A stretch of DNA of 64,000 bases from an uncultured Planctomycetales bacterium (GTDB lineage Bacteria; Omnitrophota; Gorgyraeia; Zapsychrales; Aceulaceae). This document shows, one piece after another, positions 1 through 20,598 of the stretch. The stretch is taken from positions 5,683 to 69,682 of the forward strand of contig CAZAOD010000001.1 of the NCBI GenBank assembly GCA_964486675.1, written 5' to 3'. The notes under the pieces were generated by a model. That model worked only from the letters and a program-made list of their open reading frames with translations. It was not told the origin of the DNA and ran no database searches. Every line of letters starts with the position of its first letter. The first letter of the stretch is position 1. The position numbers and the translations under genes are program-made.

Positions 1-894
1 ATTTTTTTGAATGCAGAAACAGAGATCTGGCCGAATCTTTTCATGGAATTGCGTCGACGGTCTATTCCGGTCATTCAGATCAACGGACGCCTGTCTGACA
101 AAGCATTTTCACGTTATCGACGCTTTCAGAGGTTGTTGGCGCCCGCGATCAAGGCCTTTGCTTGTTGCTGTATGCAAACAGAATTGGATGCTCAGCGCAT
201 GATGTTTTTGGGTGTCGAGACTGGGCGTGTCCATACTGTCGGGAACATGAAGTTTGATGATACGTTGCCTCCTCAGGAGCAAAAGATATCGGACTCTCAA
301 GACAGCGCTCAGATCATTACGCTGATCGCGGCCAGCACACATCCTGGAGAAGAAAAGATTGTCCTGGAGATCTTGAGAGACCTTAGAAAACAATTTTCTC
401 ATTTACGATTGTTCTTGGTCCCGCGCCATCCAGAGCGCGCAGACAGTCTTGTGTCCCTTTGTCAAAAGATGGATTTTCATGCTATTAAATTTTCTCAATT
501 ATCAGCTACCCCTTTGTCACCACAGACCATTGTCATTGTTGACACGATCGGCCAGTTACGCTCCCTTTATCGATCGGCGGATATTGTCTTTGTTGGCAAA
601 AGTCTTACCGTCAAGGGAGGGCAGAACATTATTGAGCCTGCGCTTTACGCGAAGCCGATCATCGTTGGCCCGTTCACAGAGAATTTTCGTGATATTGTCA
701 GCATCTTCATTGACCATCAAGCATTGATCCAGGTCAAAGATGAGAGCGAGCTAAAAGCGGCTATTACAAGACTTATTCAGGATCCCACCTTGCGTGTCGC
801 CTTGGGCGATAAAGCCCAGAGCGTGATCGCTTGTCATCAAGGGGCGACGGAGAAAACCTTTGGTTTCGTAAAGGCCTTTATAGGAGCCACATGA
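1..894 (+). CDS. kdtA: 3-deoxy-D-manno-octulosonic acid (Kdo) transferase WaaA/KdtA, C-terminal part (5' end lies upstream of window)
   Basis: The frame is open from nt 1. It contains the GT30 signature ETEIWPNL and a C-terminal GT-B fold, and it sits directly upstream of lpxK as in many lipid A clusters. Confidence 0.8.
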   Translation: MFLNAETEIWPNLFMELRRRSIPVIQINGRLSDKAFSRYRRFQRLLAPAIKAFACCCMQTELDAQRMMFLGVETGRVHTVGNMKFDDTLPPQEQKISDSQDSAQIITLIAASTHPGEEKIVLEILRDLRKQFSHLRLFLVPRHPERADSLVSLCQKMDFHAIKFSQLSATPLSPQTIVIVDTIGQLRSLYRSADIVFVGKSLTVKGGQNIIEPALYAKPIIVGPFTENFRDIVSIFIDHQALIQVKDESELKAAITRLIQDPTLRVALGDKAQSVIACHQGATEKTFGFVKAFIGAT

Positions 895-1952
895 TCAAAA
901 AATATCTTTCTGATCTGATCGTTCAGGACCGTTGTGACGTGATCTCTCGTTTTATAAAAGGGTGTTTGCGTGGCTTGTCGTATATTTACTTTTTGGGATC
1001 AAGGTGTATTCTTTTGTGCTATCAGACAGGGGCCTTAAGGCAACGATATCTTGCTAAGCCAACGATCAGCGTTGGGAATTTGACACTTGGAGGAACGGGA
1101 AAAACGCCATTGGTGGGTTTTTTAGCAAAGATGCTTCAGCAAAAAGGGCGGCGCCCGGCGATCTTGACCAGAGGCTACATGACCTCAAAACATTTTTCTG
1201 ATGAGGTAGCGTTGTATTGTCAGATGCTTCACGATATCCCAGTTGAACAGGGAAAGGACAGGGTTTTATCCAGTCGTAAGGTCCTGCAGGACCATCCGGA
1301 TATCAATGTTTTCTTGCTTGATGATGGGTTTCAACATTGGAAAGTCAAAAGGGACCTGGATGTCGTGACCATTGATGCAACGGATGCCTTCAGCAATGGT
1401 TTCTTAATGCCGCGTGGGTTCTTGAGAGAACCGTTAACCGCGCTTAAGCGGGCAGATGTGATCGTTCTGACAAAAGTTGATCTGGCTCCAGAAACTCTCT
1501 CTCGTGTTTATCAGCAGATCAAAGAGAATAATTTTCACGCGATCTTTGTTGAAGCCGTGTACCAGCCGATCAAGTTGATCAATCTTAAAGATCCGCAGCA
1601 ATATTATGACCCAAGCTTTCTAGAGCACAAAGATGTATGTCTTTTTTCCGCGATCGGCAATCCTAAAGCATTTAAGAAAACCGTTTATGATCTTAAGGCG
1701 AACATTCAAAAAACATTTTCATTCCTCGATCACTATGTTTATACGAAGGAAGATATTGAGCGGATGATGCTTCGTGACCGCCCAAAAAAGACAACGATCT
1801 TTGTGACGACTCAGAAAGATGCTGTTAAGCTTGAAGGGTTGCTGTCCGAGGTCCCATCTTCTGTTGACTTATTTGCATTAGCTGTAGAGATGAAAATCAT
1901 TAAGGGAGAAAAAGAGTTTGAACGCAGAATTGATTCTGTTTTATTGTGTTAA
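891..1952 (+). CDS. lpxK: tetraacyldisaccharide 4'-kinase LpxK
   Basis: P-loop GNLTLGGTGKTP plus typical LpxK conservation. The ATG at 891 overlaps the kdtA stop (ATGA). The tabulated ORF start at 831 is upstream of the likely real start. Confidence 0.85.
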   Translation: MIKKYLSDLIVQDRCDVISRFIKGCLRGLSYIYFLGSRCILLCYQTGALRQRYLAKPTISVGNLTLGGTGKTPLVGFLAKMLQQKGRRPAILTRGYMTSKHFSDEVALYCQMLHDIPVEQGKDRVLSSRKVLQDHPDINVFLLDDGFQHWKVKRDLDVVTIDATDAFSNGFLMPRGFLREPLTALKRADVIVLTKVDLAPETLSRVYQQIKENNFHAIFVEAVYQPIKLINLKDPQQYYDPSFLEHKDVCLFSAIGNPKAFKKTVYDLKANIQKTFSFLDHYVYTKEDIERMMLRDRPKKTTIFVTTQKDAVKLEGLLSEVPSSVDLFALAVEMKIIKGEKEFERRIDSVLLC

Positions 1953-3864
1953 AGTTTTCGCGGCGATTGTACAGCGTTTGCCGTTAACGGTTGCCTTGTG
2001 GTTGGGGCGCATGATCGGTCTTTTAGGATACCTTTGCGATCATCGTCACCGGTCATTGGCTTATGCCAATCTAAAGATTGCTTTCGCGCGTGAAAAAAAG
2101 ACCAGCGAGATCAAGCGTATTTTACGCAGGACATTTGAGAATTACGGACAGAACTTGATCGAGTTGTTGCGCCTTCCTGTCATTGACCCAAAAACATATA
2201 TCAAGGTCGAGGGCCGAGAGCATGTGGAGAGGGCATTGGCCCAGGGAAAAGGCCTTATCTTTCTGGCTATGCATTTTGGCAGCTGGGAACTGTGCAATTT
2301 TATTCCTCAGCTTTTTCATCATCCCTATAAAGTCCTTGTGAACCCTCAAAAGCGCTATTCTCGCCTTGATGACCTTCTTAATTCTTATCGGCAGAAAGCT
2401 GGTGCTGGCCTTCTCAATCCTGGCGTTAGCACGCGTGCGTTCATTCAGACATTAAAGGATAATGAAATGGTTGGCATGGTCGTTGATCAAGGAGGCAAGA
2501 CGGGGAATCTGGTGAAGTTTTTTGGCCGTGACGCATCTATGTCGACGGGTGCCGTCAGGATGGCGCTTAAGCTGGATGTGGCGGTTTGTTTTTGTGTCTT
2601 GATCCGCGAAAAAGGCTACCATCGTCTTATTATTAAGCCTCAGCTGGCGCTTGCCAAATCTCGGGATTTAGAGGATGGTCTTCAGCAGGGTTTGTCCGGC
2701 ATCGTTCATCTGATGGAAGAGAACATCAAGAAGCATCCCTCGGAGTATATGTGGTTTTACAAGATCTGGAAATACTCAAAAGAGTCTACGATCGTTGTGC
2801 TTAATGATCGTAAGCTTGGTCATTTACATCAATCGTTGGCTGTTGCGGGTCAGATCCAAAGAGCACTGGCTCAGCGAGCGATCCAGTCCCACCTGGAAAT
2901 CATTGATATTGAATTTAAGAGTAAGACGCGTGAAAGAGTTTTTTCTGGGATCAGCTTCGCGAGCCATCGCCGAGTTTCTCAAGGACGTCTTCGCTATCTA
3001 AAATGGTTCTTGCAAAGAAAATCCTTCTTAGAGGTTATGAGCGTTAAGGGAGATTTTGTTATTTCCTGTGGGTCGTCCACGGCAGGCGTGAATTATTTTT
3101 TATCACAAGATTATCGTGCAAAAAGCATTGCTATCCAAAAGCCTGGGATCCTTGATCTTGATCGTTTTGACCTTGTTGTTTTGCCTGAGCACGACCGAAG
3201 TGTTTTTTATGAGCGTCAAAAGAACGTCCTTTACACAAAGGTCGCTCCGAATTTGATCACTCAAGAATATATTCAGTCGCAGGGCGATCAGCTGATGATG
3301 AAATTTCCAGCGTTGCGACATCGCAAAGGCATAAGGGTCGGTGTTCTTTGGGGAGGGGAATCAAAGCACCATGCGATCCCATCACCATTAGCCAGAATGG
3401 TCATGGATCAGCTGAAAGAAGCCGTTGAATCTCTGGATGGTCAGATGTTGCTGACGACATCCCGGCGCACATCGCAAGAAACAGATGATGCGATCCGTGA
3501 GGCGTTGCGCGGATTTGATCGTTGCATCTTTTCTGTTATGCCGAATCACCATAACATCGTTGAGGCCGTAGGTGGGATTTTAGGGTTGTCGGACATCTTA
3601 GTTGTTTCTTCTGATAGCATTTCAATGGTTTCTGAGGCTATCAGTTCCGGGAAGAAAGTCATTGTTTTCAAACCAGAAAAGCGTGTCCTTGGCACATGTA
3701 AGCATGATGTCTTCGTTGAAAAGCTAAGCGTTCAAGGGCATATTCTTGTCTCTGAGGCCAAGGATATCGGGCATTTTCTTTGTCGTGTTGCAAAAGAAGG
3801 TCTTGTGACTAAGCCAGTGGACCAGCAAGAGGACATATTTAAGGTTGCTCAAGAGATCATATGA
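1918..3864 (+). CDS. fusion protein with an N-terminal LpxL/HtrB-family lipid A late acyltransferase and a C-terminal ELM1/DUF1022-like domain
   Basis: The N-terminus (~300 aa) matches the LpxL pattern (LP..LG..LG, HFGSWE, Y/MWFYK end). The C-terminal ~330 aa carry TTSRRT and SISMVSEA motifs that I recall from Mito_fiss_Elm1/DUF1022 proteins. The start is TTG at 1918 and overlaps the lpxK end; an alternative ATG is at 2011. Confidence 0.6.
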   Translation: MNAELILFYCVKVFAAIVQRLPLTVALWLGRMIGLLGYLCDHRHRSLAYANLKIAFAREKKTSEIKRILRRTFENYGQNLIELLRLPVIDPKTYIKVEGREHVERALAQGKGLIFLAMHFGSWELCNFIPQLFHHPYKVLVNPQKRYSRLDDLLNSYRQKAGAGLLNPGVSTRAFIQTLKDNEMVGMVVDQGGKTGNLVKFFGRDASMSTGAVRMALKLDVAVCFCVLIREKGYHRLIIKPQLALAKSRDLEDGLQQGLSGIVHLMEENIKKHPSEYMWFYKIWKYSKESTIVVLNDRKLGHLHQSLAVAGQIQRALAQRAIQSHLEIIDIEFKSKTRERVFSGISFASHRRVSQGRLRYLKWFLQRKSFLEVMSVKGDFVISCGSSTAGVNYFLSQDYRAKSIAIQKPGILDLDRFDLVVLPEHDRSVFYERQKNVLYTKVAPNLITQEYIQSQGDQLMMKFPALRHRKGIRVGVLWGGESKHHAIPSPLARMVMDQLKEAVESLDGQMLLTTSRRTSQETDDAIREALRGFDRCIFSVMPNHHNIVEAVGGILGLSDILVVSSDSISMVSEAISSGKKVIVFKPEKRVLGTCKHDVFVEKLSVQGHILVSEAKDIGHFLCRVAKEGLVTKPVDQQEDIFKVAQEII

Positions 3865-5966
3865 AAATCTTACAGATCCTTCCTGAACTTAATGTGGGCG
3901 GTGTTGAAACAGGCACTATTGACCTTGCGCGCTATTTGACGGAACATGGCCATGAGGCCGTTGTGGTGTCCCATGGCGGAGCCCTTGTTCCAGAGCTAAA
4001 AAGTGCTGGCGCTAAGCATTATACATTGCCAGTCCATCAGAAAAATCTTTTGACCATGTTTTGGTCCATGAAAAGACTTCAGAGGATCATCATCCAAGAA
4101 AAAGTTGATATTGTTCATGCGCGTTCGCGTGTGCCAGCGTGGGTGGCATATTTTGCCTGCCGCAAAACAGGGGTCCCATTCATTACGACATGTCATGGGT
4201 ATTATTCGAAGCATTTTTTTAGTGTTGTGATGGGATGGGCCAAGCTGATCATCGTTCCCAGTCGGGTTATCGGCCATCATATGGTTGAAGATTTTGGTGT
4301 TCCACTTGAAAGTATTCGCTGTATCCCTCGCAGTGTTGATATCCGTAAATTCAACATCCCCAGAGACGAAGATCCAAAACGTCATCCGGTCATCGCGATC
4401 GTTGGCCGTATTACCCCTTTGAAAGGGCACGAATATTTTTTAAGGGCGATGGCTCGCGTTGTTCGTCAGATGCCATACGTAAAAGTTTGGGTTATCGGTG
4501 ATGCTCCCTTGGAAAAAGAGTCTTACAAAGAAGGCTTGTTGAGCTTGACGAAGCAGTTAGGGCTTGTGAACTGTGTTGAATTTTTAGGCAACCGCAAGGA
4601 TATTCCTCAGCTCCTTTCAAGAGTAGATGTTCTTGTTCTGTCGACGGTAACGCAAGAGTCATTTGGCCGTGTCATTCTCGAAGCGCAAGCAGCGGGTGTT
4701 CCTGTTGTCGCTACGCGCGTAGGAGGGGTCGTTGATATCATCGAGGAAGGGGAAACCGGACTTTTGGTAGCCCCTAGACAGCCAGATGAGATGGCTCAGG
4801 CCATTCTTAGGATACTCAATGACACCTCGTTATCAAAAGCGATCGTTGCTAATGCCAAAAAGAAGCTTTTAGAAGAGTACACCTTAGACCACATGGCAAG
4901 TCAAACGCTGGCTGTCTATCAGGAATTATTGCAAACGGTCCATCTTTTAGTGATCAAGTTGAGCGCGATCGGAGACGCGTTACTGATCACACCATCATTG
5001 AAAGCGCTAAGGGAAAAGTTTCCTTTTGCGAGGATCTCTTGTTTGGTGGGACCATCTATCAGGGAGCTCTTGCAAAGGTGCCCTTATGTGGACGAAATCA
5101 TTGTCTATGATCCGAAAGGAAAGCATCGCGGAAAGCTTGGCCTTTGGCGGCTTGGACGCACGCTGCGCAAACATCATTTTGATAAGGTGATCGATCTTCA
5201 GAATAATCGAAAAAGTCACTTGTTAGCATTTTTGAGTTTTTGCCCTGAACGTTATGGCTATAAGAATAAGAAATGGGGATTTTTATTGTCGCGAGGCATT
5301 AAAGATGATCAGGGGATCTTACCGGCTATCCCGCACCAGTTTCGTGTCTTAAAGCAGGTTGGGATCAGCATGGAAGAAGATGTTAAGCTAGAAGTCTGGC
5401 CTTCGCCTCAGGATTACCGCTATGTTCGAGAACTTTTGGAAGGTTATTGGCTTGCAAAAGGGGTAGCGGTCGTTGGTATTAATGTTTCAGCTTCAACCCG
5501 TTGGCCAAGCAAGAATTGGCCAAAAGAGCATATTGCGAAGCTTTGCGATCTCTTGGCGGCGAAAAATATTCGTGTTGTTTTGACTGGGCTAAAAATCGAT
5601 CAACCGGCCGCTCAGGCGATCATAAAGCTTACTAAGGCAAAACCCATTGACCTCACAGGAAAGACAACAGTTCTGCAAATGGCTTCGCTTATTCAGCAAT
5701 GTTCAGCTTTTGTTGTCTCGGATTCCGCGCCTATGCATCTTGCCGCAGCAGTAAGCACGCCGTTTGTTGCCCTTTTCGGTCCGACGGATCCTTTTCGTCA
5801 TTTGCCCCCGGCAAAAAAATATAAGGTCATTGCGTTAAAGCCGCATTGTGCGCCGTGCTATCAGGGGTATTGTCCGATAAAGACACATGCGTGCATGGCC
5901 AACATTTCTCCTCAGGCCGTTTTGCAGGAGATCGAGAGTTTAATCGAGAAAAAGCAGGAAATATGA
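3861..5966 (+). CDS. two-domain glycosyltransferase with an N-terminal GT4 (GT-B, E-x7-E) domain fused to a C-terminal GT9 ADP-heptose:LPS heptosyltransferase domain
   Basis: The N-terminal half has GT4 motifs (ESFGRVILEAQAAGVPVV...GETG). The C-terminal half has the GT9 N-motif LVIKLSAIGDALLITPSL and a C-terminal DSAPMHLAAA..FGPTDP. ATG 3861 overlaps the upstream stop. Confidence 0.75.
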   Translation: MKILQILPELNVGGVETGTIDLARYLTEHGHEAVVVSHGGALVPELKSAGAKHYTLPVHQKNLLTMFWSMKRLQRIIIQEKVDIVHARSRVPAWVAYFACRKTGVPFITTCHGYYSKHFFSVVMGWAKLIIVPSRVIGHHMVEDFGVPLESIRCIPRSVDIRKFNIPRDEDPKRHPVIAIVGRITPLKGHEYFLRAMARVVRQMPYVKVWVIGDAPLEKESYKEGLLSLTKQLGLVNCVEFLGNRKDIPQLLSRVDVLVLSTVTQESFGRVILEAQAAGVPVVATRVGGVVDIIEEGETGLLVAPRQPDEMAQAILRILNDTSLSKAIVANAKKKLLEEYTLDHMASQTLAVYQELLQTVHLLVIKLSAIGDALLITPSLKALREKFPFARISCLVGPSIRELLQRCPYVDEIIVYDPKGKHRGKLGLWRLGRTLRKHHFDKVIDLQNNRKSHLLAFLSFCPERYGYKNKKWGFLLSRGIKDDQGILPAIPHQFRVLKQVGISMEEDVKLEVWPSPQDYRYVRELLEGYWLAKGVAVVGINVSASTRWPSKNWPKEHIAKLCDLLAAKNIRVVLTGLKIDQPAAQAIIKLTKAKPIDLTGKTTVLQMASLIQQCSAFVVSDSAPMHLAAAVSTPFVALFGPTDPFRHLPPAKKYKVIALKPHCAPCYQGYCPIKTHACMANISPQAVLQEIESLIEKKQEI

Positions 5967-7057
5967 ACATACTGATCTTGGCAACACATTGCAATACCGG
6001 CGGCATTACCAGCTATGTTTTGACGCTTACCAAAGGACTTGTGCAAAAAGGACACAGTGTTCATATCGTGACAAGCGGCGGCGACAGAGAGAAAGAGTGT
6101 GAGCGGGTCGGTGCGATCCATGTACGTTTAAGTATACGCACAAAATCAGAGGTCAGCTATAAAGTTTTTATGGGTATACCAGCGATTATCAAGCTTGTAA
6201 AGCAGCAACAGTGTGATGTGATCCACGCCCAGACACGCGTAACGCAGGTCATGGCGGCAATTGTTTCATTTTTTACTCGGGTCCCGTATGTAGCAACATG
6301 TCATGGGTTTTTTAAGCCTCGATTTTTTCGTCGAATTTTTCCCTGCTGGGGGAACGCGACGATTGCTATCAGCCAGCAAGTCAAAGAGCATTTGATCAAT
6401 GATTTTTCTTGCGATCCAAATAGCGTTTTTCTGCTGCCGCATGGTCTTGATGTATCCACAAAAGAATGGACGCCTCAAGAAAAAGAAGAAAGAAAGAACG
6501 TTTTGGGATTAAGATCAAAAACGATCATTGGTATTGTGGCGAGACTGTCGGATGTCAAGGGTCATGATGTGCTTATCCGCGCGATGCCGAAGGTCGTTAA
6601 GCAGGTTCCCGATGTGGATTTGGTTATTGTTGGACAGGGAAAAACAGAACCTTTTCTAAGAAAACTTGTCCATGAATTCTCACTGGAAAGCTATGTTCAT
6701 TTTTTCCCGTCAGTTAACGGCGATGATAATCTTTTGCCTTTGTTCGATGTTTTTGTCATGCCTTCGCGGCAGGAAGGGTTGGGCTTGTCTGTGATGGAGG
6801 CTCAAGCGCAAGGACTTGCCGTTGTTGCCTCCAATGTTGGCGGGATCCCAAGCCTTATCGAGAACGGAAAGACAGGGGTTTTAGTTAGTAAAGAAAACCC
6901 GGAACAGCTTGCAGACGCGATCATTGATCTTTTGAAGGACACTGATAAGCGCAAAAGGATCGCGTGCGCTGCCCAGGCTTTTGCGATCAAAAATTTTTCT
7001 CTTGATCCGATGGTTCAAGGGACTTTACAGGTGTACGCTCAGGCACGTAAACTATGA
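5963..7057 (+). CDS. GT4-family glycosyltransferase (LPS core glycosyltransferase, WaaG-like), paralogue of the N-terminal domain of the preceding gene
   Basis: MNILILATH..TGGI..; ATCHGFFKPRFF aligns with TTCHGYYSKHFF in the upstream gene. It has the EGLGLSVMEAQAQGLAVV motif and an ATGA overlap at 5963; the tabulated ORF start at 5846 is upstream of the likely real start. Confidence 0.75.
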   Translation: MNILILATHCNTGGITSYVLTLTKGLVQKGHSVHIVTSGGDREKECERVGAIHVRLSIRTKSEVSYKVFMGIPAIIKLVKQQQCDVIHAQTRVTQVMAAIVSFFTRVPYVATCHGFFKPRFFRRIFPCWGNATIAISQQVKEHLINDFSCDPNSVFLLPHGLDVSTKEWTPQEKEERKNVLGLRSKTIIGIVARLSDVKGHDVLIRAMPKVVKQVPDVDLVIVGQGKTEPFLRKLVHEFSLESYVHFFPSVNGDDNLLPLFDVFVMPSRQEGLGLSVMEAQAQGLAVVASNVGGIPSLIENGKTGVLVSKENPEQLADAIIDLLKDTDKRKRIACAAQAFAIKNFSLDPMVQGTLQVYAQARKL

Positions 7058-8070
7058 AGCGAATCCTAGTCGTGAACGTAAATTGGTTAGGAGATGTTAT
7101 TTTTTCTTCTCCTGTTTTTGCTGCTCTTCACAAGCAGTATCCTGGCGCGCGTATTTGCTGCTTGACCGTGCCGCGGGTTGCGGATGTCGCTCGGCAAATC
7201 CCTTGCGTTGATGATGTCATGATCTATGACGAAAAAGGGAAGGATCGTTTCTTGCTAGGCAAGGTCAGGCTTGTGCGTGAGATCAGAGCGCAAAATTTCG
7301 ATGGCGCATTTTTACTGCATGGCTCTTGGACAAGGGCGTTATTGGTTTTCTTAGCTGGCATTCCCGTTCGTGTCGGCTATAACATAAAAAGGCGCGGATG
7401 GCTTTTAACCCATCGTGTGAATGTTCCTCAGGGCATGATACATCGAAGCGACCATTATTTGAATGTGGTTGAATCCTTCTGCGGCCTATCGACAGTCCCG
7501 CGCACAACCAGTCTTCGGGTTTCATCTGAAGATGTTGCTGCCGCTCAAGGACAGCTGGTATCTTTAGGAGTTAAGGAACATGATTTTGTAGTCTTGATGC
7601 ATATTGGTGGCAATTGGCCCTTGAAGCGCTGGCCGATAGAGAATTTTGCGAAACTTTCTGATGCGTTGACAGAAAGAGAGAATACAAAGGTGGTGATTTG
7701 CGGCGGGGTAAGCGAACAAGTATTAAAAGAGCATATTCTCAAGGAAACAGTGCGCAAGCCGATCATCATGGTCGGACATACAAATTTTTCACAGCTTGTA
7801 GGCCTTATGAAAAGTGTCCATGTCGTTGTGTCTGCTGATTCGGGGCCGCTACATGTCGCAAGCAGCGTCGCAACTCCCGTCGTTGGGCTTTTTGGCCCAA
7901 CACACCCGGATGTCACGGGTCCGCGTGGCGGGGGGCGAGCCTCTATTCTTTATTTTCATGTGGGTTGCAATATCAAGCCTTGTTATCATGAGCAATGCCA
8001 GGATAATATTTGTATGAAAGCGATTAGCGTTAAAGACGTGGTGGAAAAGATTGAACAAGTGCGAAATTAA
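7054..8070 (+). CDS. ADP-heptose:LPS heptosyltransferase (GT9)
   Basis: MKRILVVNVNWLGDVIFSSPV N-motif and C-terminal DSGPLHVASSVATPVVGLFGPT; ATGA overlap with the upstream gene. Confidence 0.8.
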   Translation: MKRILVVNVNWLGDVIFSSPVFAALHKQYPGARICCLTVPRVADVARQIPCVDDVMIYDEKGKDRFLLGKVRLVREIRAQNFDGAFLLHGSWTRALLVFLAGIPVRVGYNIKRRGWLLTHRVNVPQGMIHRSDHYLNVVESFCGLSTVPRTTSLRVSSEDVAAAQGQLVSLGVKEHDFVVLMHIGGNWPLKRWPIENFAKLSDALTERENTKVVICGGVSEQVLKEHILKETVRKPIIMVGHTNFSQLVGLMKSVHVVVSADSGPLHVASSVATPVVGLFGPTHPDVTGPRGGGRASILYFHVGCNIKPCYHEQCQDNICMKAISVKDVVEKIEQVRN

Positions 8071-8998
8071 AAAGATCCTTATTGTAAGCCTTACGAATAT
8101 CGGGGACGTGGTCTTAACGTGTCCGGTGATCGATGCGCTCATCAATCGTTTTCCCTTAGCAGAAATTTCAGTCGTCGTTGGACCAAAAGCCCAGACATTG
8201 TTCGAGCGCAATCCTTATATCAAGAAGGTGCATGTTTTTACAAAGAAGGAGACCTTCGGTGAACTTATTTCTTTCGTTCAGCAGTTGAGACAGCAACGCT
8301 TTGACGCGGTCATTGATCTGCGCAACACAGCGTTAGGGTATTTCTTGGGAGCCCCATTTCATACTTCTGTTTTTGCGTGTATTGATCCTTACCTGCATAA
8401 GCGTGACCAGCATTGGCAGAGGTTGCAAAGTCTTTTTTCTGATGTGGAGCGCACAAAAAAACGTTATGCGATCTTTATTGATGAAACGATAAGAAAGAAG
8501 TCTGAGAATATTTTACGTCAGACCTTGGAGTATGGTAAAGGATATTGCGTGATCGCCGCTGGCTCTGCAGACCGAAAAAAGCGATGGACCGCAGATGGTT
8601 TTGTTTCTGTCTGTCAAGCGTTGGTCCAAACATATCGTATGCCTGTATTCTTTGTTGGAGACATCCTTGATTACGAAGGAGCAGAAAACATTATCAAAAA
8701 GGTCTCACAAGGGGCTGTTAATCTTTGTGGCAAGCTTTCCTTGTTGGAAACAACATGGGTTTTGCGTAATAGCCGTCTTTTGCTTTGTAACGATAGCGCG
8801 GCTATGCATCTTGCCAGCTATTTTGATGTCCCGACTGTCGCTTTGTTCGGGCCCACGGACCCGCGCAAATATGGTCCTTGGGGTGAGCGCAGCTGTTTTG
8901 TCCGAGCAAAGATGATCAATGAAGCTGGCGAAGGTCTTATGACCACTATCGACCCGCAAGAAGTTTTGGATCGCATGAAAGAGCTGATAGTTTTATGA
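8051..8998 (+). CDS. ADP-heptose:LPS heptosyltransferase (GT9), second tandem copy
   Basis: KKILIVSLTNIGDVVLTCPV and DSAAMHLASYFDVPTVALFGPTDP. The start is TTG at 8051, so the exact start is uncertain. Confidence 0.7.
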   Translation: MNKCEIKKILIVSLTNIGDVVLTCPVIDALINRFPLAEISVVVGPKAQTLFERNPYIKKVHVFTKKETFGELISFVQQLRQQRFDAVIDLRNTALGYFLGAPFHTSVFACIDPYLHKRDQHWQRLQSLFSDVERTKKRYAIFIDETIRKKSENILRQTLEYGKGYCVIAAGSADRKKRWTADGFVSVCQALVQTYRMPVFFVGDILDYEGAENIIKKVSQGAVNLCGKLSLLETTWVLRNSRLLLCNDSAAMHLASYFDVPTVALFGPTDPRKYGPWGERSCFVRAKMINEAGEGLMTTIDPQEVLDRMKELIVL

Positions 8999-10083
8999 AA
9001 CAACGATATTTTAAGAATATTCTTGTTGTAAGAACTGACCGGATTGGTGATGTCGTCTTGACAACACCCGTTTTGGAGGCTCTGCGCAAGGCATATCCTT
9101 CGGCCAGGATTTCCATCATGGTGACATCCGCAACCAAGGACGTGGTAGAAGGTAATCCTTTTATCGATGAAGTGATTTCTTATGACAAGAGAGGTAAAGA
9201 CAAGGGATTTCTTGGATTTTGGCGGTTTATTCGTTTTCTAAAGAGCAAAAAATTTGATCTCGCGATCAATTATCACTTGAAGAACAGAACTAATTTTATG
9301 CTGTTCCATGCGGGGATCCCAAACCGGATCGGTTTTGCAAATGACAAGTTCGGTTTTTTGCTGACGGAGAGCTATCCAGATCCTCGAACGGATGGGACTA
9401 AGCATGAAGCGGAATATTGCTTGGACTTGCTGCGAAATATTGGCGTTGATCACCAAGGATTCCAGGTTCATGTTCCGATCCACCGCGCCTCAGAAGTGTG
9501 GGTTGCAAAACTTTTTGCTGAAAATCATATCAATCCTGATGACCGGCTTATCGCGATCCATCCTGGGGCCAGCTGTCTTTCGAAACGTTGGCCTCCGCAG
9601 CGTTTCGCGGAAGTTGCCGATATTCTGGAAAAGGAATATCAGGCAAAGATTATCGTAATAGGCTCTGGCGATAATCAACTTGTCGCTCGGGAGGTTTTGT
9701 TGTCTATGAAGCAATCTGTTGTGGATATGACGGGACGAACGACTATAAGTCATTTGATCAGCCTTTTGAAAAGATGCGCCTTGCTGATCTCGAACGATTC
9801 TGGGCCTGTTCATTTGGCTGTTGGCGTTCAGACACCTGTGGTTTCGATTTTTGGCCGCAATCAAGCAGGCTTATCGGCTACTCGCTGGAAACCCTTAGGC
9901 GAGTTAGACATTGCTTTGCATCATGATATTGGATGCAAGGTTTGTTTAGCCCATAACTGTGATCGCCATTTTCAATGCTTGCGATCGATCACGGTAGACC
10001 ATGTGGTAGAGGCCGCGCGGACGATTTTAAAGAAGAAAATATCGAAAAAAGATGAAAAAGACGATAATATTGTTAACCCCTGA
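8995..10083 (+). CDS. ADP-heptose:LPS heptosyltransferase (GT9), third tandem copy
   Basis: NILVVRTDRIGDVVLTTPVL and DSGPVHLAVGVQTPVVSIFG; ATGA overlap at 8995. Confidence 0.8.
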   Translation: MKQRYFKNILVVRTDRIGDVVLTTPVLEALRKAYPSARISIMVTSATKDVVEGNPFIDEVISYDKRGKDKGFLGFWRFIRFLKSKKFDLAINYHLKNRTNFMLFHAGIPNRIGFANDKFGFLLTESYPDPRTDGTKHEAEYCLDLLRNIGVDHQGFQVHVPIHRASEVWVAKLFAENHINPDDRLIAIHPGASCLSKRWPPQRFAEVADILEKEYQAKIIVIGSGDNQLVAREVLLSMKQSVVDMTGRTTISHLISLLKRCALLISNDSGPVHLAVGVQTPVVSIFGRNQAGLSATRWKPLGELDIALHHDIGCKVCLAHNCDRHFQCLRSITVDHVVEAARTILKKKISKKDEKDDNIVNP

Positions 10084-10099
10084 ACATGCGAGGTAATTC

Positions 10100-10456
10100 A
10101 TGGCAGAGAGATTCGATCAGCGTGAGTTTGTCCGTGTCCCAGATTGTTCCGATGTTGTCTATACGCCTATTTCGTCAGGCAAAAAGACAAAAAGCGAGAT
10201 CAAAGATATCAGCCAGGCAGGGATCTGCTTTATCTCAGAAGAAAAGCTTGAACCCGGAGCCACTATCGATCTGACGCTCACCTTGGAAAAGATCGGATTT
10301 TCTTTTGTCGCGCAGGGGGTCGTGAGATGGGTCAATGAAGTTGTGAAGAATAGGCGCTACGAGGTCGGTATCAAGTTCGTTGATCTTCCCGATCAAGATA
10401 TACGTCGTTTGCTTAATTATATGAATTCCATGAAAAAGTTTGATAGTTATCGGTAA
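10100..10456 (+). CDS. PilZ-domain c-di-GMP-binding protein (stand-alone, 118 aa)
   Basis: An N-terminal R..EFVR (RxxxR-like) and a DISQAGICF (DxSxxG) motif pair, preceded by a GAGGT ribosome-binding site. Confidence 0.65.
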   Translation: MAERFDQREFVRVPDCSDVVYTPISSGKKTKSEIKDISQAGICFISEEKLEPGATIDLTLTLEKIGFSFVAQGVVRWVNEVVKNRRYEVGIKFVDLPDQDIRRLLNYMNSMKKFDSYR

Positions 10457-10507
10457 GATGTTCAGCGCCCTGCCTTTTTTGGCTGCATTTTCTAGAGATT
10501 TATTCGT

Positions 10508-10536
10508 TTGACGCTCTTTTTAAACTATGCTAAAAT
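10508..10536 (+). promoter_or_regulatory. sigma70-type promoter TTGACG-17-TAAAAT with an extended -10 (TGc)
   Basis: It lies in the 147-bp gap between the PilZ gene and the heptose kinase gene. The -35 box is at 10508-10513 and the -10 box at 10531-10536, with TG at 10528-10529. Confidence 0.45.
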
Positions 10537-10603
10537 CGGCTCTTTAGTTGAGTCTTAAGAGAGCAAATTTGTCCTCCTTGCCGTATTAATACTTATAATA
10601 ATT

Positions 10604-11632
10604 ATGATCAATTTTCCAACACATATCATTTCTCGCTTCCGCGGAAAGAAGATCTTGGTCATCGGTGACATTATTTTGGACCAATATATCCATGGCGCCG
10701 TTGAAAGGATCTCTCCGGAAGCGCCTGTACCTGTTGTGCTGCAGGAGGGAGAGGCGCGCTTTACCCCAGGCGGCGCCGCCAATGTGGCCAACAATTTGAG
10801 CAGTTTAGGCGCGCGTGTTGTTCTCTCTGGTCAAGTAGGAGACGATCTAGAGGCGAGGATCCTGTATCGGGAGTTTAAAAAGCGCTGCGTTGGCACGGCG
10901 GGATTGATCAAAGATCTTAATGGCATGACGTCTTTAAAGACTCGCATCATTGCTCAGCACCAACAGGTGGTCCGTGTTGATCGAGAAAATGGGTCTGGCG
11001 TAAGCCCCGAAGCGAGTCAAAAGATCCTCGCGTTCATTGAGAAGAATTTCCATAAGTTCGACGCGATCATTTTGTCAGATTACGGTAAAGGTGTTATCAC
11101 AAGGGACCTTGTCCGTCGAGTCTGCGCACTAAAGCGCCGGCACCATACGATCGTTACTGTTGATCCTAAGGTGGAGCATTTTAACTACTATCACCAGGCC
11201 ACGTGCATAACGCCAAATCGAAAAGAGACTGAAAACGCGATCCGTAATATTATCATCACGCATGAAAAAGGGCGTCAGCTCAAGATCAGGAACGACAAGC
11301 TAAAGACCATCAAAGATGTTCGTTTGGCTGGACAAGAAATATTGAATTATTTGAATCTGGAATCTTTGCTTGTGACCTTGGGTGAGCAAGGGATGTGTCT
11401 TTTCCAGAAAGGCCAAGAGCCTTTTTTAATAGCCACAAAAGCTAAAGAAGTTTTTGATGTTACAGGCGCAGGGGATACGGTTATTTCTGTTTTTACGTTG
11501 AGCCTAGCAGCGGGGGCTTCTAAGCAGGAGGCCGCGATCCTTGCGAACTATGCCGCAGGCGTTGTTGTCGGGAAAACCGGAGCTGTCGCGGTGACTCCTA
11601 ATGAAATTTTAGCTGCTATGACAGAGAGTTAA
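10604..11632 (+). CDS. hldA: D-glycero-beta-D-manno-heptose-7-phosphate kinase (HldE domain I only; HldA-like monofunctional kinase)
   Basis: ILVIGDIILDQYIHG..ISPEAPVPVV..PGGAANVANN and a C-terminal DVTGAGDT pfkB-family motif. At 342 aa there is no adenylyltransferase domain. Confidence 0.8.
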   Translation: MINFPTHIISRFRGKKILVIGDIILDQYIHGAVERISPEAPVPVVLQEGEARFTPGGAANVANNLSSLGARVVLSGQVGDDLEARILYREFKKRCVGTAGLIKDLNGMTSLKTRIIAQHQQVVRVDRENGSGVSPEASQKILAFIEKNFHKFDAIILSDYGKGVITRDLVRRVCALKRRHHTIVTVDPKVEHFNYYHQATCITPNRKETENAIRNIIITHEKGRQLKIRNDKLKTIKDVRLAGQEILNYLNLESLLVTLGEQGMCLFQKGQEPFLIATKAKEVFDVTGAGDTVISVFTLSLAAGASKQEAAILANYAAGVVVGKTGAVAVTPNEILAAMTES

Positions 11633-11636
11633 TACT

Positions 11637-12377
11637 ATGAAAGCTATTGGTGTTATTCCTGCTCGATACGGTTCTACGCGTCTTAAGGCAAAAGTGTTAG
11701 CGGATATTCTCGGAAAGCCTTTGATCCAGCATGTGTGGGAGGGGGCAAGGCGTTCGCAGTACCTTGATGATCTTTATGTGGCAACGGATGATGAACGTGT
11801 TAAGGTTGTCTGTGAAGGGTTTGGAGCAAAGGTTGTAATGACAAGCCCTGATTGTCAGTCGGGATCTGATCGCGTCATTGATGTGATCAAAGACATGAGC
11901 GCCGCGCATGTTCTTAATATCCAAGGTGATGAACCTTTGATCGATGGCAGCATTATCGATGGGCTTATTGCGGCCTTAAGAAAAGAAAAAGAGGCGCCTG
12001 TCGCGACGGTTATTAAACCTATCGTCAAAGAAGAAGACTTGAGTAATCCTAACATCGTTAAGGTTGTTGTTGACAGAAAAGGATATGCGCTTTATTTTTC
12101 GCGTTCTACGATCCCTTTTAACCGAGAGGCGGCAAGCTTTTCGACTCTTAAATATTACAAGCATTTAGGGATCTATGCGTATCAAAAAAGTTTTTTAATG
12201 AGCTTTAAGAAATTGCCTCGCTCGATTCTTGAGGAGACCGAAAAGCTGGAGCAGTTGCGCGTCCTGGAGGCGGGATACAAGATCAAGACAACGCTGACAG
12301 ACAGAGAGACGTTGAGTGTTGATACGGCTGAAGACCTGGACAAGGTCAAGGCGTTTTTGCGAAAGGTTAAGAAATGA
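11637..12377 (+). CDS. kdsB: 3-deoxy-manno-octulosonate cytidylyltransferase (CMP-Kdo synthetase)
   Basis: IGVIPARYGSTRL..GKPLI..; typical KdsB length of 246 aa. Confidence 0.85.
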   Translation: MKAIGVIPARYGSTRLKAKVLADILGKPLIQHVWEGARRSQYLDDLYVATDDERVKVVCEGFGAKVVMTSPDCQSGSDRVIDVIKDMSAAHVLNIQGDEPLIDGSIIDGLIAALRKEKEAPVATVIKPIVKEEDLSNPNIVKVVVDRKGYALYFSRSTIPFNREAASFSTLKYYKHLGIYAYQKSFLMSFKKLPRSILEETEKLEQLRVLEAGYKIKTTLTDRETLSVDTAEDLDKVKAFLRKVKK

Positions 12378-13204
12378 GTACGATCGTTTCGACAGGAAAC
12401 ATCAAGATGGGCGGGTCGAATCCTTTTGTTTTGATCGCAGGGCCATGCGTGATCGAGGGGCGAACATTCGCGCTACGTCTTGCGAGTGATCTAAAGGCGA
12501 TCGCGCGCGAGGTAGGTGTGCCTTTTATTTTCAAGGCAAGTTATGATAAGGCCAATAGAACATCTTTGAATTCTTTCCGCGGTCCAGGGCTTTTAAAAGG
12601 GCTTGCAGTTTTGCACGATATTAAAGAACGTATTGGCGTTCCGATTCTCAGCGATGTCCACGGCGTGGATGAGGTCGCGGAGGCGGCGAATGTGCTGGAC
12701 ATTATTCAGATCCCTGCTTTTTTATGCCGTCAAACAGACCTAATTGTTGCTGCGGCTCAAACACGTAAGATCGTTAATGTCAAGAAAGGACAGTTTTTAG
12801 CTCCTTGGGATATCGGGCAGGTCATTAAAAAGATTGAGTCTCAGGGAAACAAAAAGATCCTTTTGACAGAGCGAGGCGTGACCTTTGGCTACAACAATCT
12901 TGTGAGTGATTTTCGTTCTGTTGAGATCATGAAGAGTACAGGTTATCCTGTTATTTATGACGCTACCCATAGTGTTCAGCAGCCAGGCGGCAAAGGGGAT
13001 CAATCTGGCGGCAACAGTGAATATGTGCCCTTGCTCTCGCGCTGCGCTGTTGCGGCTGGAATTTCCGCTCTCTTTCTGGAGGTCCATCCTCATCCTAAGC
13101 AAGCCTTGTCGGACGGGCCTAATTCCTTGCCTTTGTCCAAGCTCAAAGGGTTGTTGCGAGGCTTAAAACAGATCGATCGTGTTGTCAAACAACGTTTTCA
13201 TTAA
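12374..13204 (+). CDS. kdsA: 2-dehydro-3-deoxyphosphooctonate aldolase (Kdo-8-P synthase)
   Basis: FVLIAGPCVIE..FKASYDKANRTS..; ATGA overlap with kdsB. Confidence 0.85.
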   Translation: MSTIVSTGNIKMGGSNPFVLIAGPCVIEGRTFALRLASDLKAIAREVGVPFIFKASYDKANRTSLNSFRGPGLLKGLAVLHDIKERIGVPILSDVHGVDEVAEAANVLDIIQIPAFLCRQTDLIVAAAQTRKIVNVKKGQFLAPWDIGQVIKKIESQGNKKILLTERGVTFGYNNLVSDFRSVEIMKSTGYPVIYDATHSVQQPGGKGDQSGGNSEYVPLLSRCAVAAGISALFLEVHPHPKQALSDGPNSLPLSKLKGLLRGLKQIDRVVKQRFH

Positions 13205-13212
13205 AGGAAAAT

Positions 13213-14172
13213 ATGGTATTGCAAAGAGCAAAAAGTGTTATTACCGCTGAGCTTGAGGCTATTAGCCAACTAAAAGAAAGGTTAGGGTCAGAGTTCGTTG
13301 ATGCGGTCGACATGCTGGCGAAATGTAAAGGGCGGGTGATCGTTTGCGGCATGGGAAAAACAGGTCTGATCGGACGTAAGATCGCGGCCACTCTTTCTTC
13401 GACGGGAACTCCGTCTTTTTGGTTGCATTCTGCTGAAGCGCTGCATGGGGACCTTGGGCAGGTAACAAAGATCGATGTCATGATCCTGATCTCTCACAGT
13501 GGCGAAACTGATGAAACGAAAAGCTTGCTGCCGCTGCTGAAAAAGATCGGCATCAAATCGATCGCGATCACCGGCAACCCCCGTTCATCTTTAGGCCGCT
13601 ACTGTGATATTGTCTTGAATGTCGCTGTTAAAAAAGAAGGATGCCCTCTAGGCCTTGCGCCCATGGCGTCGACAACGGCCACCTTGGTGATTGGAGACGC
13701 GCTGGCGGCATGCTTGATCGATAAAAAGAATTTTAGGCGAGAAGATTTTGCTTTTTATCACCCCGGAGGATCCTTAGGCAGGAATCTTTTGCTTCGCGTC
13801 GCAGATATCATGCGCACAGGCTCTCAATATGCTAAGGTCAAGCCTTCTTCATCCGTCAAGGATGTCCTTTTCGCGATCACGAAAGCCCGCTGTGGCTCTG
13901 CGTGCGTTATCGATCCGAAGGGAAAGCTTGTGGGGATCTTTACGGATGGGGATTTACGTCGTCATTTAAAGAACGGATCCCTTTTTCTGCAGCAAAAAGT
14001 TGAAATGGTTATGACCAAAGATCCAGCAACGATCGCGCAGGATCATCTTGCCGCTGAAGCCATGTGCTTGTTGCAGCAGCGTCGTATCGATGAGGTTCCT
14101 GTCGTGGATGAAAAAGGAAAATCTGTTGGCTTGCTTGATGTTCAGGATTTATTAAAAGCGGGGATCGTCTAA
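13213..14172 (+). CDS. kdsD: arabinose-5-phosphate isomerase KdsD/GutQ (SIS plus tandem CBS domains)
   Basis: The SIS motif VIVCGMGKTG..SHSGET followed by CBS-like repeats; gene order kdsD-kdsC-lptC-lptB. Confidence 0.8.
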   Translation: MVLQRAKSVITAELEAISQLKERLGSEFVDAVDMLAKCKGRVIVCGMGKTGLIGRKIAATLSSTGTPSFWLHSAEALHGDLGQVTKIDVMILISHSGETDETKSLLPLLKKIGIKSIAITGNPRSSLGRYCDIVLNVAVKKEGCPLGLAPMASTTATLVIGDALAACLIDKKNFRREDFAFYHPGGSLGRNLLLRVADIMRTGSQYAKVKPSSSVKDVLFAITKARCGSACVIDPKGKLVGIFTDGDLRRHLKNGSLFLQQKVEMVMTKDPATIAQDHLAAEAMCLLQQRRIDEVPVVDEKGKSVGLLDVQDLLKAGIV

Positions 14173-14702
14173 TGAAGCTCAGCGCAGCGCTGAAAGCAAG
14201 AATGAAGAATATCAAGGTTTTAGCCATGGATGTTGATGGCGTGCTGACCAATGGCCAATTGATCTTTGATGGGCAAGGGCGAGAACTCAAAAGTTTTAAT
14301 GTCCAAGACGGGTTTGGTATTGTCATTCTTAAGCGTGCCGGTATCAAGACGGCGATCATCACGGCAGGCAATTCCAAGGTCGTCAAGGTCCGGGCAGATT
14401 ATCTTCATATCGATAGATTATATTCAGGTGTTTATCCCAAGATGACAGCCTACGAGCATATGCTAAAAGAATTTAAGGTTGTGGACGCTCAGGTTTGTTT
14501 TATCGGTGACGATATCACGGATTGTCAGATTCTTAAGCGTGCCGGATTGGGCATTGCTGTTCGTAATGCTGTTGCTGAGGCAAAGAGCGCTGCTGATGGG
14601 GTGACGACGCGTTGCGGCGGTGATGGAGCTGTGCGGGAAGTGATCGAGCTTTTGTTGAAAGCAAAAGGTTTGTGGACGAAGGTCGTTGCTGGCGACCTGT
14701 AG
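14172..14702 (+). CDS. kdsC: Kdo-8-phosphate phosphatase KdsC (HAD family)
   Basis: LAMDVDGVLTNG..FIGDDITD HAD motifs, 176 aa, 1-nt overlap with the kdsD stop. Confidence 0.8.
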   Translation: MKLSAALKARMKNIKVLAMDVDGVLTNGQLIFDGQGRELKSFNVQDGFGIVILKRAGIKTAIITAGNSKVVKVRADYLHIDRLYSGVYPKMTAYEHMLKEFKVVDAQVCFIGDDITDCQILKRAGLGIAVRNAVAEAKSAADGVTTRCGGDGAVREVIELLLKAKGLWTKVVAGDL

Positions 14703-14718
14703 CTTCAAGAGGTGCTTG

Positions 14719-15555: not shown

Positions 15556-16258
15556 GAACTTAGTCAAAGCATATGGCGGCCGACGGGTCGTTAATAATCT
15601 CAGCATTTCGATCGGCCGCTCTGAGATCGTCGGCTTGCTGGGGCCTAACGGCGCTGGCAAGACAACAACGTTTTATATGGCAGTCGGCATTATCCGTCCT
15701 GATGAGGGACAGGTTCTTTTTGACCAGGAAGATATTACTCATAAGCCTATCCATGACCGTTGTCATTTAGGCATTGGTTATCTGGCTCAGGAGCCGTCGA
15801 TCTTTCGGAAGTTGACGGTTGAAGAAAATATCATGCTTATTTTAGAAACATTGAGTATTTCCCCGAGGGAACGCAGGCGCCGCTTAAGCAATCTATTAGA
15901 AGAGCTAAATATTGGACATTTAGCAAAAAGTAAAGCTTATACGCTTTCAGGAGGCGAAAGGCGCCGGCTCGAGATCACGCGGGCACTTGTGACTAATCCA
16001 TCATTTTTATTGCTTGATGAACCCTTCTCGGGGATTGACCCGATCGTTGTTGCTGAAGCTCAGGAGATCATTAAAGATCTTCGAGGCAGGGGGCTGGGGA
16101 TCTTATTAACCGACCACAATGTGCGTGAAACATTATCGATCACCGACAGAGCATATCTGGTTGCTGATGGTCAGATCTTGATATCAGGAACAGCGGATGA
16201 TCTTGTTAACAATCCACGGGCGAGACAGATCTATCTTGGCGAAAAATTTCGCATGTAA
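15536..16258 (+). CDS. lptB: LPS export ABC transporter ATP-binding protein LptB
   Basis: Walker A GPNGAGKTT, the ABC signature LSGGERRRLEI, 241 aa, follows the lptC/A-like gene. Confidence 0.85.
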   Translation: MYLLEAKNLVKAYGGRRVVNNLSISIGRSEIVGLLGPNGAGKTTTFYMAVGIIRPDEGQVLFDQEDITHKPIHDRCHLGIGYLAQEPSIFRKLTVEENIMLILETLSISPRERRRRLSNLLEELNIGHLAKSKAYTLSGGERRRLEITRALVTNPSFLLLDEPFSGIDPIVVAEAQEIIKDLRGRGLGILLTDHNVRETLSITDRAYLVADGQILISGTADDLVNNPRARQIYLGEKFRM

Positions 16259-16293
16259 TAATAAAGTCGTTAAACAACTGAAGGAAAGGCAAG

Positions 16294-17797: not shown

Positions 17798-17836
17798 CAG
17801 CATTTTATTCATTAGGTGAAGAAAGGAAGTTGTTGT

Positions 17837-18979: not shown

Positions 18980-18993
18980 AATAAGAGGTTGTC

Positions 18994-20580: not shown

Positions 20581-20598
20581 TATTCAAAAAGGGTGCTT

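Follow-up and report, generated by a model that had tools for sequence, protein, structure and literature searches.

Glycosyltransferases of the PF06258 (ELM1) family have been linked to the assembly of lipooligosaccharide (LOS) in Acinetobacter. GtrOC1, GtrOC14, GtrOC19 and GtrOC22 of the A. baumannii outer-core (OC) locus were assigned to PF06258 by Kenyon and Hall in 2014 (PMC4172580), and four or five PF06258 genes have been found in the outer-core loci of A. baumannii alone (PMC4172580, PMC10327509). Deletion of 2903, which is the same gene as GtrOC1, was shown to cut the LOS back to Kdo2-lipid A, in which Kdo stands for 3-deoxy-D-manno-octulosonic acid (VanOtterloo et al., mBio 2024; PMC10936431), and in December 2025 VanOtterloo, Voss and Trent reported in the Journal of Biological Chemistry the purification of A1S_2903/GtrOC1, which was renamed KdoT (PMC12856342). 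In vitro, KdoT transferred KdoIII from cytidine monophosphate-Kdo (CMP-Kdo) onto Kdo2-lipid IVA and did not accept lipid IVA, and its conversion was about twofold higher on the tetra-acylated than on the hexa-acylated substrate. The second arginine of its SRRT motif was needed for activity (R180A and R180Q were inactive, R180K was active), single alanine mutants of the D/H motif residues regarded as candidate catalytic bases remained active, and in vivo KdoT depended on the glycosyltransferase family 4 (GT4) enzyme GnaT (LpsB), which adds N-acetylglucosaminuronic acid (GlcNAcA) to KdoIII (PMC12856342). A kdoT deletion was complemented by homologues from four Acinetobacter species and from Rickettsia rickettsii (PMC12856342), and the function therefore spans a deep divergence. 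In this work we analyzed 64,000 nucleotides (nt) of DNA from an uncultured bacterium of the phylum Omnitrophota (assembly GCA_964486675.1, contig CAZAOD010000001.1, positions 5,683 to 69,682; this whole stretch is referred to as the window), in which one gene joins a lipid A acyltransferase domain of the LpxL type to a domain of the KdoT family and encodes, in our opinion, a genuine bifunctional inner-membrane enzyme of lipopolysaccharide (LPS) assembly. An initial annotation of this DNA had described the ELM1 family as having no established function in bacteria; this statement is outdated, as GtrOC1/2903 was tied to the LOS core in 2014, its role was demonstrated by genetics in 2024 and its activity as the CMP-Kdo transferase KdoT by enzymology in December 2025, and the premise that the fusion would give a functional handle on an uncharacterised family has been overtaken by the work on KdoT.

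The fusion gene (LpxL::ELM1) is a single uninterrupted open reading frame (ORF) of 648 amino acids (aa) in the ORF listing, with a TTG start preceded by an AAGGGAG Shine-Dalgarno sequence and a TGA stop that forms an ATGA overlap with the start codon of the following gene. Its protein matched two Pfam families, each with a score that greatly exceeded the gathering cut-off: PF03279 (Lip_A_acyltrans), with 152 bits at aa 8-285 (E 2.6e-44), and PF06258 (Mito_fiss_Elm1) at aa 301-610 with 158.6 bits against a cut-off of 27 (E 2.5e-46). The features identified in the gene are as follows.

1918..3864, + strand: whole fusion gene (ORF, two Pfam domains, at least 120 clusters of the same architecture, AlphaFold2 model)
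1939..2772, + strand: secondary acyltransferase domain for lipid A, of the LpxL/LpxM type (aa 8-285); the N-terminal helix, aa 5-23, is hydrophobic
2272..2289, + strand: HX4E catalytic dyad, H119-F-G-S-W-E124, with H119 and E124 invariant in a 51-sequence alignment
2737..2805, + strand: domain junction, aa 274-296, PSEYMWFYKIWKYSKESTIVVLN, leading from the LpxL C-terminal W/Y/K motif into the first GT-B beta-strand
2782..3861, + strand: ELM1/KdoT-family (PF06258) GT-B glycosyltransferase domain, aa 289-648
2806..2832, + strand: N-subdomain motif D297-x3-G301-H302-x2-Q305, equivalent to KdoT D8...G12-H13...Q16, at least 98 % conserved in the KdoT, paralogue and Omnitrophota clades
3184..3195, + strand: P-E-H425-D426 motif, equivalent to KdoT P-E-H109-D110
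3454..3471, + strand: TTSRRT, aa 513-518, in which S515 R516 R517 T518 are equivalent to KdoT S178 R179 R180 T181, 100 % conserved (52/52 sequences)
3616..3639, + strand: SISMVSEA, aa 567-574 (S567, S569, M570, E573), in the donor-binding subdomain, 94-100 % conserved family-wide

The AlphaFold2 model of the full-length protein was confident (predicted local distance difference test, pLDDT, 91; predicted template modelling score, pTM, 0.85) and showed an LpxM/PatA fold for the N-domain and a GT-B fold of two Rossmann domains for the C-domain; when the PDB was searched by sequence, the C-domain gave no match. H119 and E124 correspond to the dyad of LpxM, for which PDB entry 5knk is the catalytic mutant E127A. 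Both halves hold invariant residues in the 51-sequence alignment, and around the junction these are W279, Y281, K282, W284, K285 and Y286, followed by D297, G301 and H302. Only about 5 residues link the last LpxL motif to the first GT-B strand, and in the model a strand, E289-296, directly follows that motif. In these respects the initial annotation, which had read the N-terminal half as a lipid A late acyltransferase and the C-terminal half as an ELM1/DUF1022 domain with TTSRRT and SISMVSEA motifs and a GT-B-like fold, agrees with the PF03279 match, the LpxM-like fold and the intact HX4E dyad, with the PF06258 match and the location of both motifs, and with the full-length model; the profile search placed the C-terminal half in PF06258. 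In the N-subdomain of the ELM1 half, aa 330-378 (nt 2905..3051) contain a segment of about 45 aa, FKSKTRERVFSGISFASHRRVSQGRLRYLKWFLQRKSF, that is basic and amphipathic and longer than the equivalent region of KdoT; within it, G356 and R357 are nearly invariant and L365 is invariant. This segment is a candidate membrane- or lipid A-binding element.

When the fusion protein was searched against 5.8 billion proteins, 667 matches were obtained, and the best 120 clusters (90 % identity) were analyzed. All of these best 120 of the 667 matches had both Pfam domains, and were 45-96 % identical to the query and 628-670 aa long; every cluster among them with a named organism was Candidatus Omnitrophota, for which the NCBI label is "ELM1/GtrOC1 family putative glycosyltransferase". 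One might suppose that two adjacent genes had been merged through a frameshift or a lost stop codon, as in one close relative (locus L053) the junction is interrupted by two in-frame stop codons; however, over this range of identity the same unbroken ORF is present in hundreds of assemblies that are independent of one another and of diverse sources, the junction is invariant, and the guanine-cytosine (GC) content is flat over it. Because the continuous ORF is conserved, the composition uniform and the single-chain model confident, such an artefact, which the initial annotation had named as a risk, can be excluded for all practical purposes.

The sequence of KdoT was approached through published primers. 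Patches of KdoT were decoded from the cloning and mutagenesis primers, and a degenerate pattern encoding DGKAGHRSQALG, taken from the kdoT mutagenesis primers, fetched 52 loci, nearly all of them from Acinetobacter; an exact scan of genome contigs for the A. baumannii OC locus with the ilvE primer RH1701 gave 0 matches. In A. pittii, A. calcoaceticus, A. nosocomialis and A. baylyi, the KdoT ORF (294-302 aa) matched all of the primer patches, and KdoT scores 210 bits against PF06258. The C-domain of the fusion is 30 % identical over 207 aa (E 3e-14) to KdoT of A. pittii, a species tested in the enzymatic study (PMC12856342). The equivalent residues, given for the window first and for KdoT second, are D297/D8, H302/H13, Q305/Q16, H425 and D426/H109 and D110, R516/R179 and R517/R180, the latter pair including the functionally required arginine, and SISMVSEA is the counterpart of DSVSMIFEA. 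By analogy with other GT-B enzymes, we take the SISMVSEA motif to bind the nucleotide sugar. Fifteen residues are at least 90 % conserved over the KdoT, paralogue and Omnitrophota groups, and the C-domain keeps every family-invariant residue, the SRRT arginine included. The C-domain thus belongs to the KdoT family, while orthology to KdoT is not demonstrable. A contig labelled as Bacteroidaceae bacterium (CAVBYE010000032.1) carries a KdoT gene typical of Acinetobacter/Moraxellaceae, MHIVYVTDGKAGHRSQALG..., and is probably mis-binned in its metagenome-assembled genome (MAG).

In eleven of the 52 kdoT loci, a further ELM1 paralogue (GtrOC19/22 type, about 345-350 aa) is encoded at a distance of 2-3 kb from kdoT, for instance in the Acinetobacter loci L010 (6243..7295), L032 (6087..7139), L035, L048, L050 and L052. 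Most of the Acinetobacter paralogues carry (S/T)TSRRT and SxSMxxE. The use of TTSRRT as a marker of Kdo-specific enzymes was considered and rejected, as the Acinetobacter outer-core paralogues have this motif too; since most copies have it, as TTSRRT or STSRRT, one may ask whether these paralogues, too, use a donor that is acidic or CMP-linked. In a bootstrapped neighbour-joining tree of 52 sequences based on Poisson distances, KdoT was monophyletic (100 % bootstrap) and the fused and stand-alone proteins of Omnitrophota formed one clade (91 % bootstrap), with the ELM1-only proteins scattered among the fused ones.

When only the C-domain was used in an exhaustive search of 1.84 billion representatives at 50 % identity, 1957 relatives were obtained, 183 of them at E<=1e-30. 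Among the best 150, 111 were fused (88 to a complete LpxL and 23 with a truncated N-terminus), 21 had a complete ELM1 N-terminus without a match to LpxL, and the other 18 were fragments; SRRT was present in 145 of these 150 nearest representatives, and the donor-site motifs were all invariant within the Omnitrophota clade. The LpxL::ELM1 fusion is a conserved feature of the phylum Omnitrophota and appears to be new as a phylum-wide trait. Our literature searches found no description of an LpxL-ELM1 fusion or of LPS biosynthesis in Omnitrophota, and the KdoT/GtrOC papers (PMC4172580, PMC10936431, PMC12856342) make no mention of fusions.

The fusion partner is interchangeable among close relatives, being LpxL, LpxK or, where the gene is split, none. 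Three close relatives (P0180, P0147 and P0136) have an LpxK::ELM1 fusion (PF02606 and PF06258), an alternative arrangement that also appears to be new. In the two such loci inspected, L100 (3438..5543) and L101 (1784..3940), which encode P0180 and P0147, the protein is about 700 aa long and a GT4::GT9 gene comes next; no lpxL lies between lpxK and ELM1, the fusion takes the same locus position as LpxL::ELM1 with the LpxL module absent there, and waaA is separated from lpxK by two inserted genes, one for a CBS-domain protein and one for a Na+/H+ exchanger. In L053 (1..1380) the gene is split: lpxL ends in ...YMWFY*, and 27 nt on, in frame and past a second stop, a GTG-started ELM1 gene begins. 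The split may have arisen by recent fission or by decay of the junction into a pseudogene, or the sequence of that MAG may be in error here. LpxK and LpxL both have N-terminal hydrophobic anchors, and the variable partner is always a membrane-anchored enzyme of the Raetz pathway flanking the WaaA step. The idea that stand-alone relatives carry a membrane anchor of their own was rejected, as the N-terminal extensions of P0195 and P0228 were found to be LpxL C-termini of truncated fusions, and no hydrophobic segment was found in the true stand-alone ELM1 relatives. The ELM1 gene of an unclassified MAG (L042) is surrounded by respiratory genes, a context that was uninformative.

The surroundings of the fusion gene correspond to an LPS super-operon, and waaA/kdtA and lpxK were identified upstream by Pfam and NCBIfam, in keeping with the kdtA-lpxK-lpxL setting given in the initial annotation. 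The other genes of the operon are listed below.

7..894, + strand: C-terminal 295 aa of waaA/kdtA (Kdo transferase), cut by the window edge (PF04413; NCBIfam PRK05749 variants, E 2.7e-74)
831..1952, + strand: lpxK (tetraacyldisaccharide 4'-kinase; PF02606, E 4.8e-70; TIGR00682, 177.7 bits, above cut-off)
3861..5966, + strand: GT4::GT9 fusion, with a GnaT/LpsB-type GT4 (aa 1-358) and a heptosyltransferase-II-like domain of glycosyltransferase family 9 (GT9, aa 362-695) (Pfam, NCBIfam)
5963..7057, + strand: second GT4 (Pfam)
7054..8070, 8051..8998 and 8995..10083, + strand: three GT9 genes (Pfam)
10604..16258, + strand: PfkB sugar kinase, kdsB, kdsA, kdsD and kdsC (CMP-Kdo pathway), a fused lptC/lptA-like ORF and lptB

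Neighbouring genes of the operon overlap by 4-35 nt; between lpxK and the start of the fusion gene the overlap is 35 nt. The synteny waaA-lpxK-fusion-GT4::GT9 was common to all 5 of the fused loci examined, and the longer order waaA-lpxK-fusion-GT4::GT9-GT4-GT9 is kept in the window and in L055, L056 and L057, whose ELM1 domains are only about 31-50 % identical to that of the window. The order of the core glycosyltransferase genes after the fusion is the same in L055 and L056 and differs among the GT9 genes in L057; the PfkB-kdsB-kdsA-kdsD block lies downstream in the window, L055 and L056 and is absent from L057.

The gene that follows the fusion encodes a likely counterpart of GnaT, the enzyme on which KdoT depends in Acinetobacter. 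As a reference we used the 366-aa GnaT from L094, both ends of which match the published A. baumannii primers exactly. The GT4 half of 3861..5966 is 34 % identical to GnaT end to end (206 bits, E 2e-64), whereas the other GT4 of the operon reached only 24 % identity and 102 bits; the GT9 half scored 159 bits, above the cut-off, against TIGR02195. GnaT and the GT4 half of the window share the same best relative in the PDB, a glycosyltransferase of Rickettsia africae (7mi0), with 152 and 176 bits, respectively, while any other GT4 scored at most 64 and 96 bits. The GT4::GT9 gene came next after the ELM1 domain in 7 of 7 Omnitrophota loci, including those with LpxK::ELM1 and split variants. Judged from these similarities, a KdoT-like and GnaT-like pair occurs in both Acinetobacter and Omnitrophota and, when the complementation study is combined with the PDB match, apparently in Rickettsia as well, and this co-occurrence suggests that the ELM1 domain depends functionally on the GnaT-like GT4. 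The direct succession of a KdoT-like and a GnaT-like module, both of them joined to a further LPS enzyme, appears to be new. The lpxL::ELM1 and GT4::GT9 genes are two consecutive bifunctional LPS genes translationally coupled by the ATGA overlap, and the GT4::GT9 fusion was kept in every Omnitrophota locus inspected.

The explanation that we favor as a whole, and that we regard as probable, is that the fusion protein is a bifunctional acyltransferase and KdoT-like glycosyltransferase acting on Kdo2-lipid IVA, followed by GnaT-like capping. According to this model, WaaA, encoded two genes upstream of the fusion, would make Kdo2-lipid IVA, on which both domains of the fusion protein would act. 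The N-domain, anchored by the N-terminal helix of LpxL, would add a secondary acyl chain from the acyl-acyl carrier protein via the HX4E dyad, and the C-domain would add the first sugar beyond the Kdo residues installed by WaaA. By analogy with KdoT, we lean slightly towards Kdo from CMP-Kdo as the sugar transferred, and the CMP-Kdo could be supplied by kdsBADC of this operon. The following gene, through its GnaT/LpsB-like GT4 half, would then cap the added residue, and the GT9 heptosyltransferases would extend the core. The LpxL partner supports a KdoT-like role because LpxL acts on Kdo2-lipid IVA, the preferred substrate of KdoT. The fusion may mainly serve to tether an otherwise soluble glycosyltransferase to the membrane beside its lipid substrate, which would explain why close relatives fuse ELM1 to LpxK or encode it next door on its own. 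The data show the architecture with its conservation and synteny, the intact motifs and the relationship by homology to KdoT and GnaT; acceptor and donor, the sequence of the steps and the reason for tethering are what we infer. The initial annotation had already placed the action of the ELM1 domain at the Kdo2-lipid A intermediate, and this agrees with Kdo2-lipid IVA as the acceptor of KdoT (PMC12856342) and with the adjacent GnaT-like gene; the motifs are family-wide and leave the donor unfixed, and the partner is not specific, varying from LpxL to LpxK or a split gene.

Several points weigh against this model. The placement of the Omnitrophota clade in the tree had a bootstrap of only 13 % with KdoT and 50 % with the paralogues, the clade was roughly equidistant from the two (mean distances of 1.49 and 1.61, respectively), and the Omnitrophota domains had a median profile score of 64 bits against KdoT versus 84 bits against the paralogues. 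The window domain is also about 60 aa longer than KdoT. The SRRT motif is needed for KdoT function and is not diagnostic of it, and no sequence feature diagnostic of CMP-Kdo was found, because the uncharacterised paralogues share TTSRRT and SxSMxxE. For the other half, all NCBIfam equivalogs fell under their cut-offs (the best was PRK08419, with 131 bits against a cut-off of 248), and the N-domain, which comes nearest to lipid A lauroyl acyltransferases below every such cut-off, is classed by its sequence in the LpxL/LpxM/LpxP family, for which the NCBIfam scores assign no subtype, acyl position or chain length. We know of no LPS structure for any member of the Omnitrophota. Alternatively, with the same architecture and acceptor region, the ELM1 domain might be a KdoT-family glycosyltransferase of another donor specificity and transfer a sugar other than Kdo, such as a hexose, hexosamine, uronic acid or heptose, to Kdo2-lipid IVA, Kdo2-lipid A or the innermost core: the Omnitrophota clade does not group firmly as sister to KdoT and scores better with the profile of the outer-core paralogues, which presumably use other donors, the motifs are shared family-wide, and PF06258 genes are numerous in the outer-core loci of A. 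baumannii (PMC4172580, PMC10327509). We nevertheless consider this rather unlikely, since the sole biochemically characterised member uses CMP-Kdo and can be substituted by a very distant Rickettsia homologue (PMC12856342), the rigid fusion to the membrane-embedded LpxL or LpxK would put the domain at the membrane surface near the Kdo region, and both the GnaT-like partner and the genes for CMP-Kdo synthesis are at hand in the operon. It is far less probable still, indeed very hard to credit, that the ELM1 domain is non-catalytic and serves as a scaffold or regulator, in the way proposed for plant ELM1 as an adaptor in the fission of mitochondria. An assistive role was briefly weighed in the 2024 study (PMC10936431), and the alanine mutants of the candidate catalytic bases of KdoT were active; however, purified KdoT alone is a transferase (PMC12856342), and the domain in Omnitrophota keeps the donor-site motifs invariant within its clade and SRRT in nearly all of the nearest representatives.

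A different question is why the two domains are fused. It is quite possible, although we would not call it probable, that the fusion arose as a by-product of gene packing, from overlapping operon genes, and was kept as a membrane anchor, so that the identity of the partner as LpxL would be uninformative on the substrate and there would be no catalytic coupling. The LpxK::ELM1 proteins (P0180, P0147 and P0136), which take the same locus position without an LpxL module there, the one verified split pair of lpxL and ELM1 (L053), the ELM1-only proteins interspersed in the tree, the short overlaps between neighbouring genes and the N-terminal anchors common to LpxK and LpxL are all consistent with such an origin. 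On the other hand, the LpxL fusion is dominant (111/150 representatives) and ancient, its junction is invariant, and both alternative partners are Raetz-pathway enzymes that flank the WaaA step, so that the argument at the level of the pathway survives. A packing origin, which concerns why the domains are fused, is compatible with the bifunctional acyltransferase and KdoT-like glycosyltransferase, which concerns what they do. At the opposite end, LpxL::ELM1 might be an obligatorily coupled two-site enzyme that acylates Kdo2-lipid IVA and adds the sugar to it in a single encounter, with channelling that fixes the order of late acylation and inner-core extension, and/or the ELM1 domain might belong to a third functional class of the family, whose donor or linkage is unlike that of KdoT; we regard this as unlikely and put it forward as speculation. 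If it were true, the KdoT and GnaT two-step module would be an ancient, cross-phylum component of LPS assembly in diderm bacteria rather than an oddity of Acinetobacter.

The remainder of the window provided little further information on LPS. A second copy of LpxL or ELM1 was not found in the 64-kb window, and among the ORFs scanned between 18 and 58 kb, which were housekeeping genes, there were no further LPS genes. Upstream of lptB, a 289-aa ORF (14686..15555, + strand) matches LptC at aa 35-171 and LptA/LptD_N at aa 185-271 and is an apparent LptC-LptA fusion. The trigger factor (16294..17205, + strand) is only 303 aa long, with Trigger_N at aa 2-142 and Trigger_C at aa 168-278, and appears to be without the central FKBP-type peptidyl-prolyl isomerase domain. 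A 342-aa ORF (20593..21621, + strand) between serA-like and purA genes had no Pfam match at E<=1e-5. Essentially all ORFs of at least 150 aa in 1..59800 (about 59 kb) are on the + strand, many with overlapping stops and starts, and the cumulative GC skew climbs steadily across the first 9 kb profiled. Such extreme co-directional and compact packing of genes in the window may favor gene fusions.

The description of KdoT in late 2025 was a departure from the rule that WaaA installs all Kdo of the inner core, and homologues had been shown only in Acinetobacter and Rickettsia (PMC12856342). This work suggests that such a split-Kdo pathway is widespread, with a KdoT-family domain and a GnaT-type partner gene as a conserved core of the LPS operon in the Omnitrophota, which are uncultivated and far from the Proteobacteria. 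The members of this phylum often have ultra-small cells. Furthermore, the welding of the ELM1 domain to LpxK and LpxL, which handle the substrate or the product of WaaA, provides independent evidence, from gene fusion, for the action of ELM1-family enzymes at the Kdo2-lipid IVA stage, and the fusion, bifunctional by nature, lends itself to structural studies of the coordination between late acylation and the initiation of the core. It opens no new functional class, and the public annotation already names these proteins as putative glycosyltransferases of the ELM1/GtrOC1 family.

Plant ELM1, the namesake of PF06258, belongs to the same Pfam family as the window domain and differs by description, being a eukaryotic fission adaptor of the outer mitochondrial membrane with no known glycosyltransferase activity. 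WaaA/KdtA is a Kdo transferase of another family (GT30) with no significant similarity to the window domain and is encoded by a separate gene in the same operon. In contrast to LpxL and LpxM (PF03279; A. baumannii LpxM, 5KN7/5KNK), the window protein continues at its C-terminus into a glycosyltransferase of about 360 aa. The outer-core paralogues in Acinetobacter, of the GtrOC14/19/22 type, share with the window domain PF06258, a similar length, TTSRRT and SxSMxxE, whereas they are stand-alone proteins encoded among outer-core genes, are uncharacterised in function and are about 21 % identical to it. KdoT itself is a stand-alone protein of about 294 aa without a membrane anchor, encoded beside ilvE and unlinked to lpxL and gnaT, while the window domain, of about 360 aa, is covalently joined to LpxL, falls in a separate deep clade and has CMP-Kdo as its putative donor. 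Both belong to PF06258, have the GT-B fold and the D/GH/Q, PEHD, TTSRRT and SxSMxxEA motifs, and both stand in the context of the LPS core together with a GT4 of the GnaT/LpsB type.

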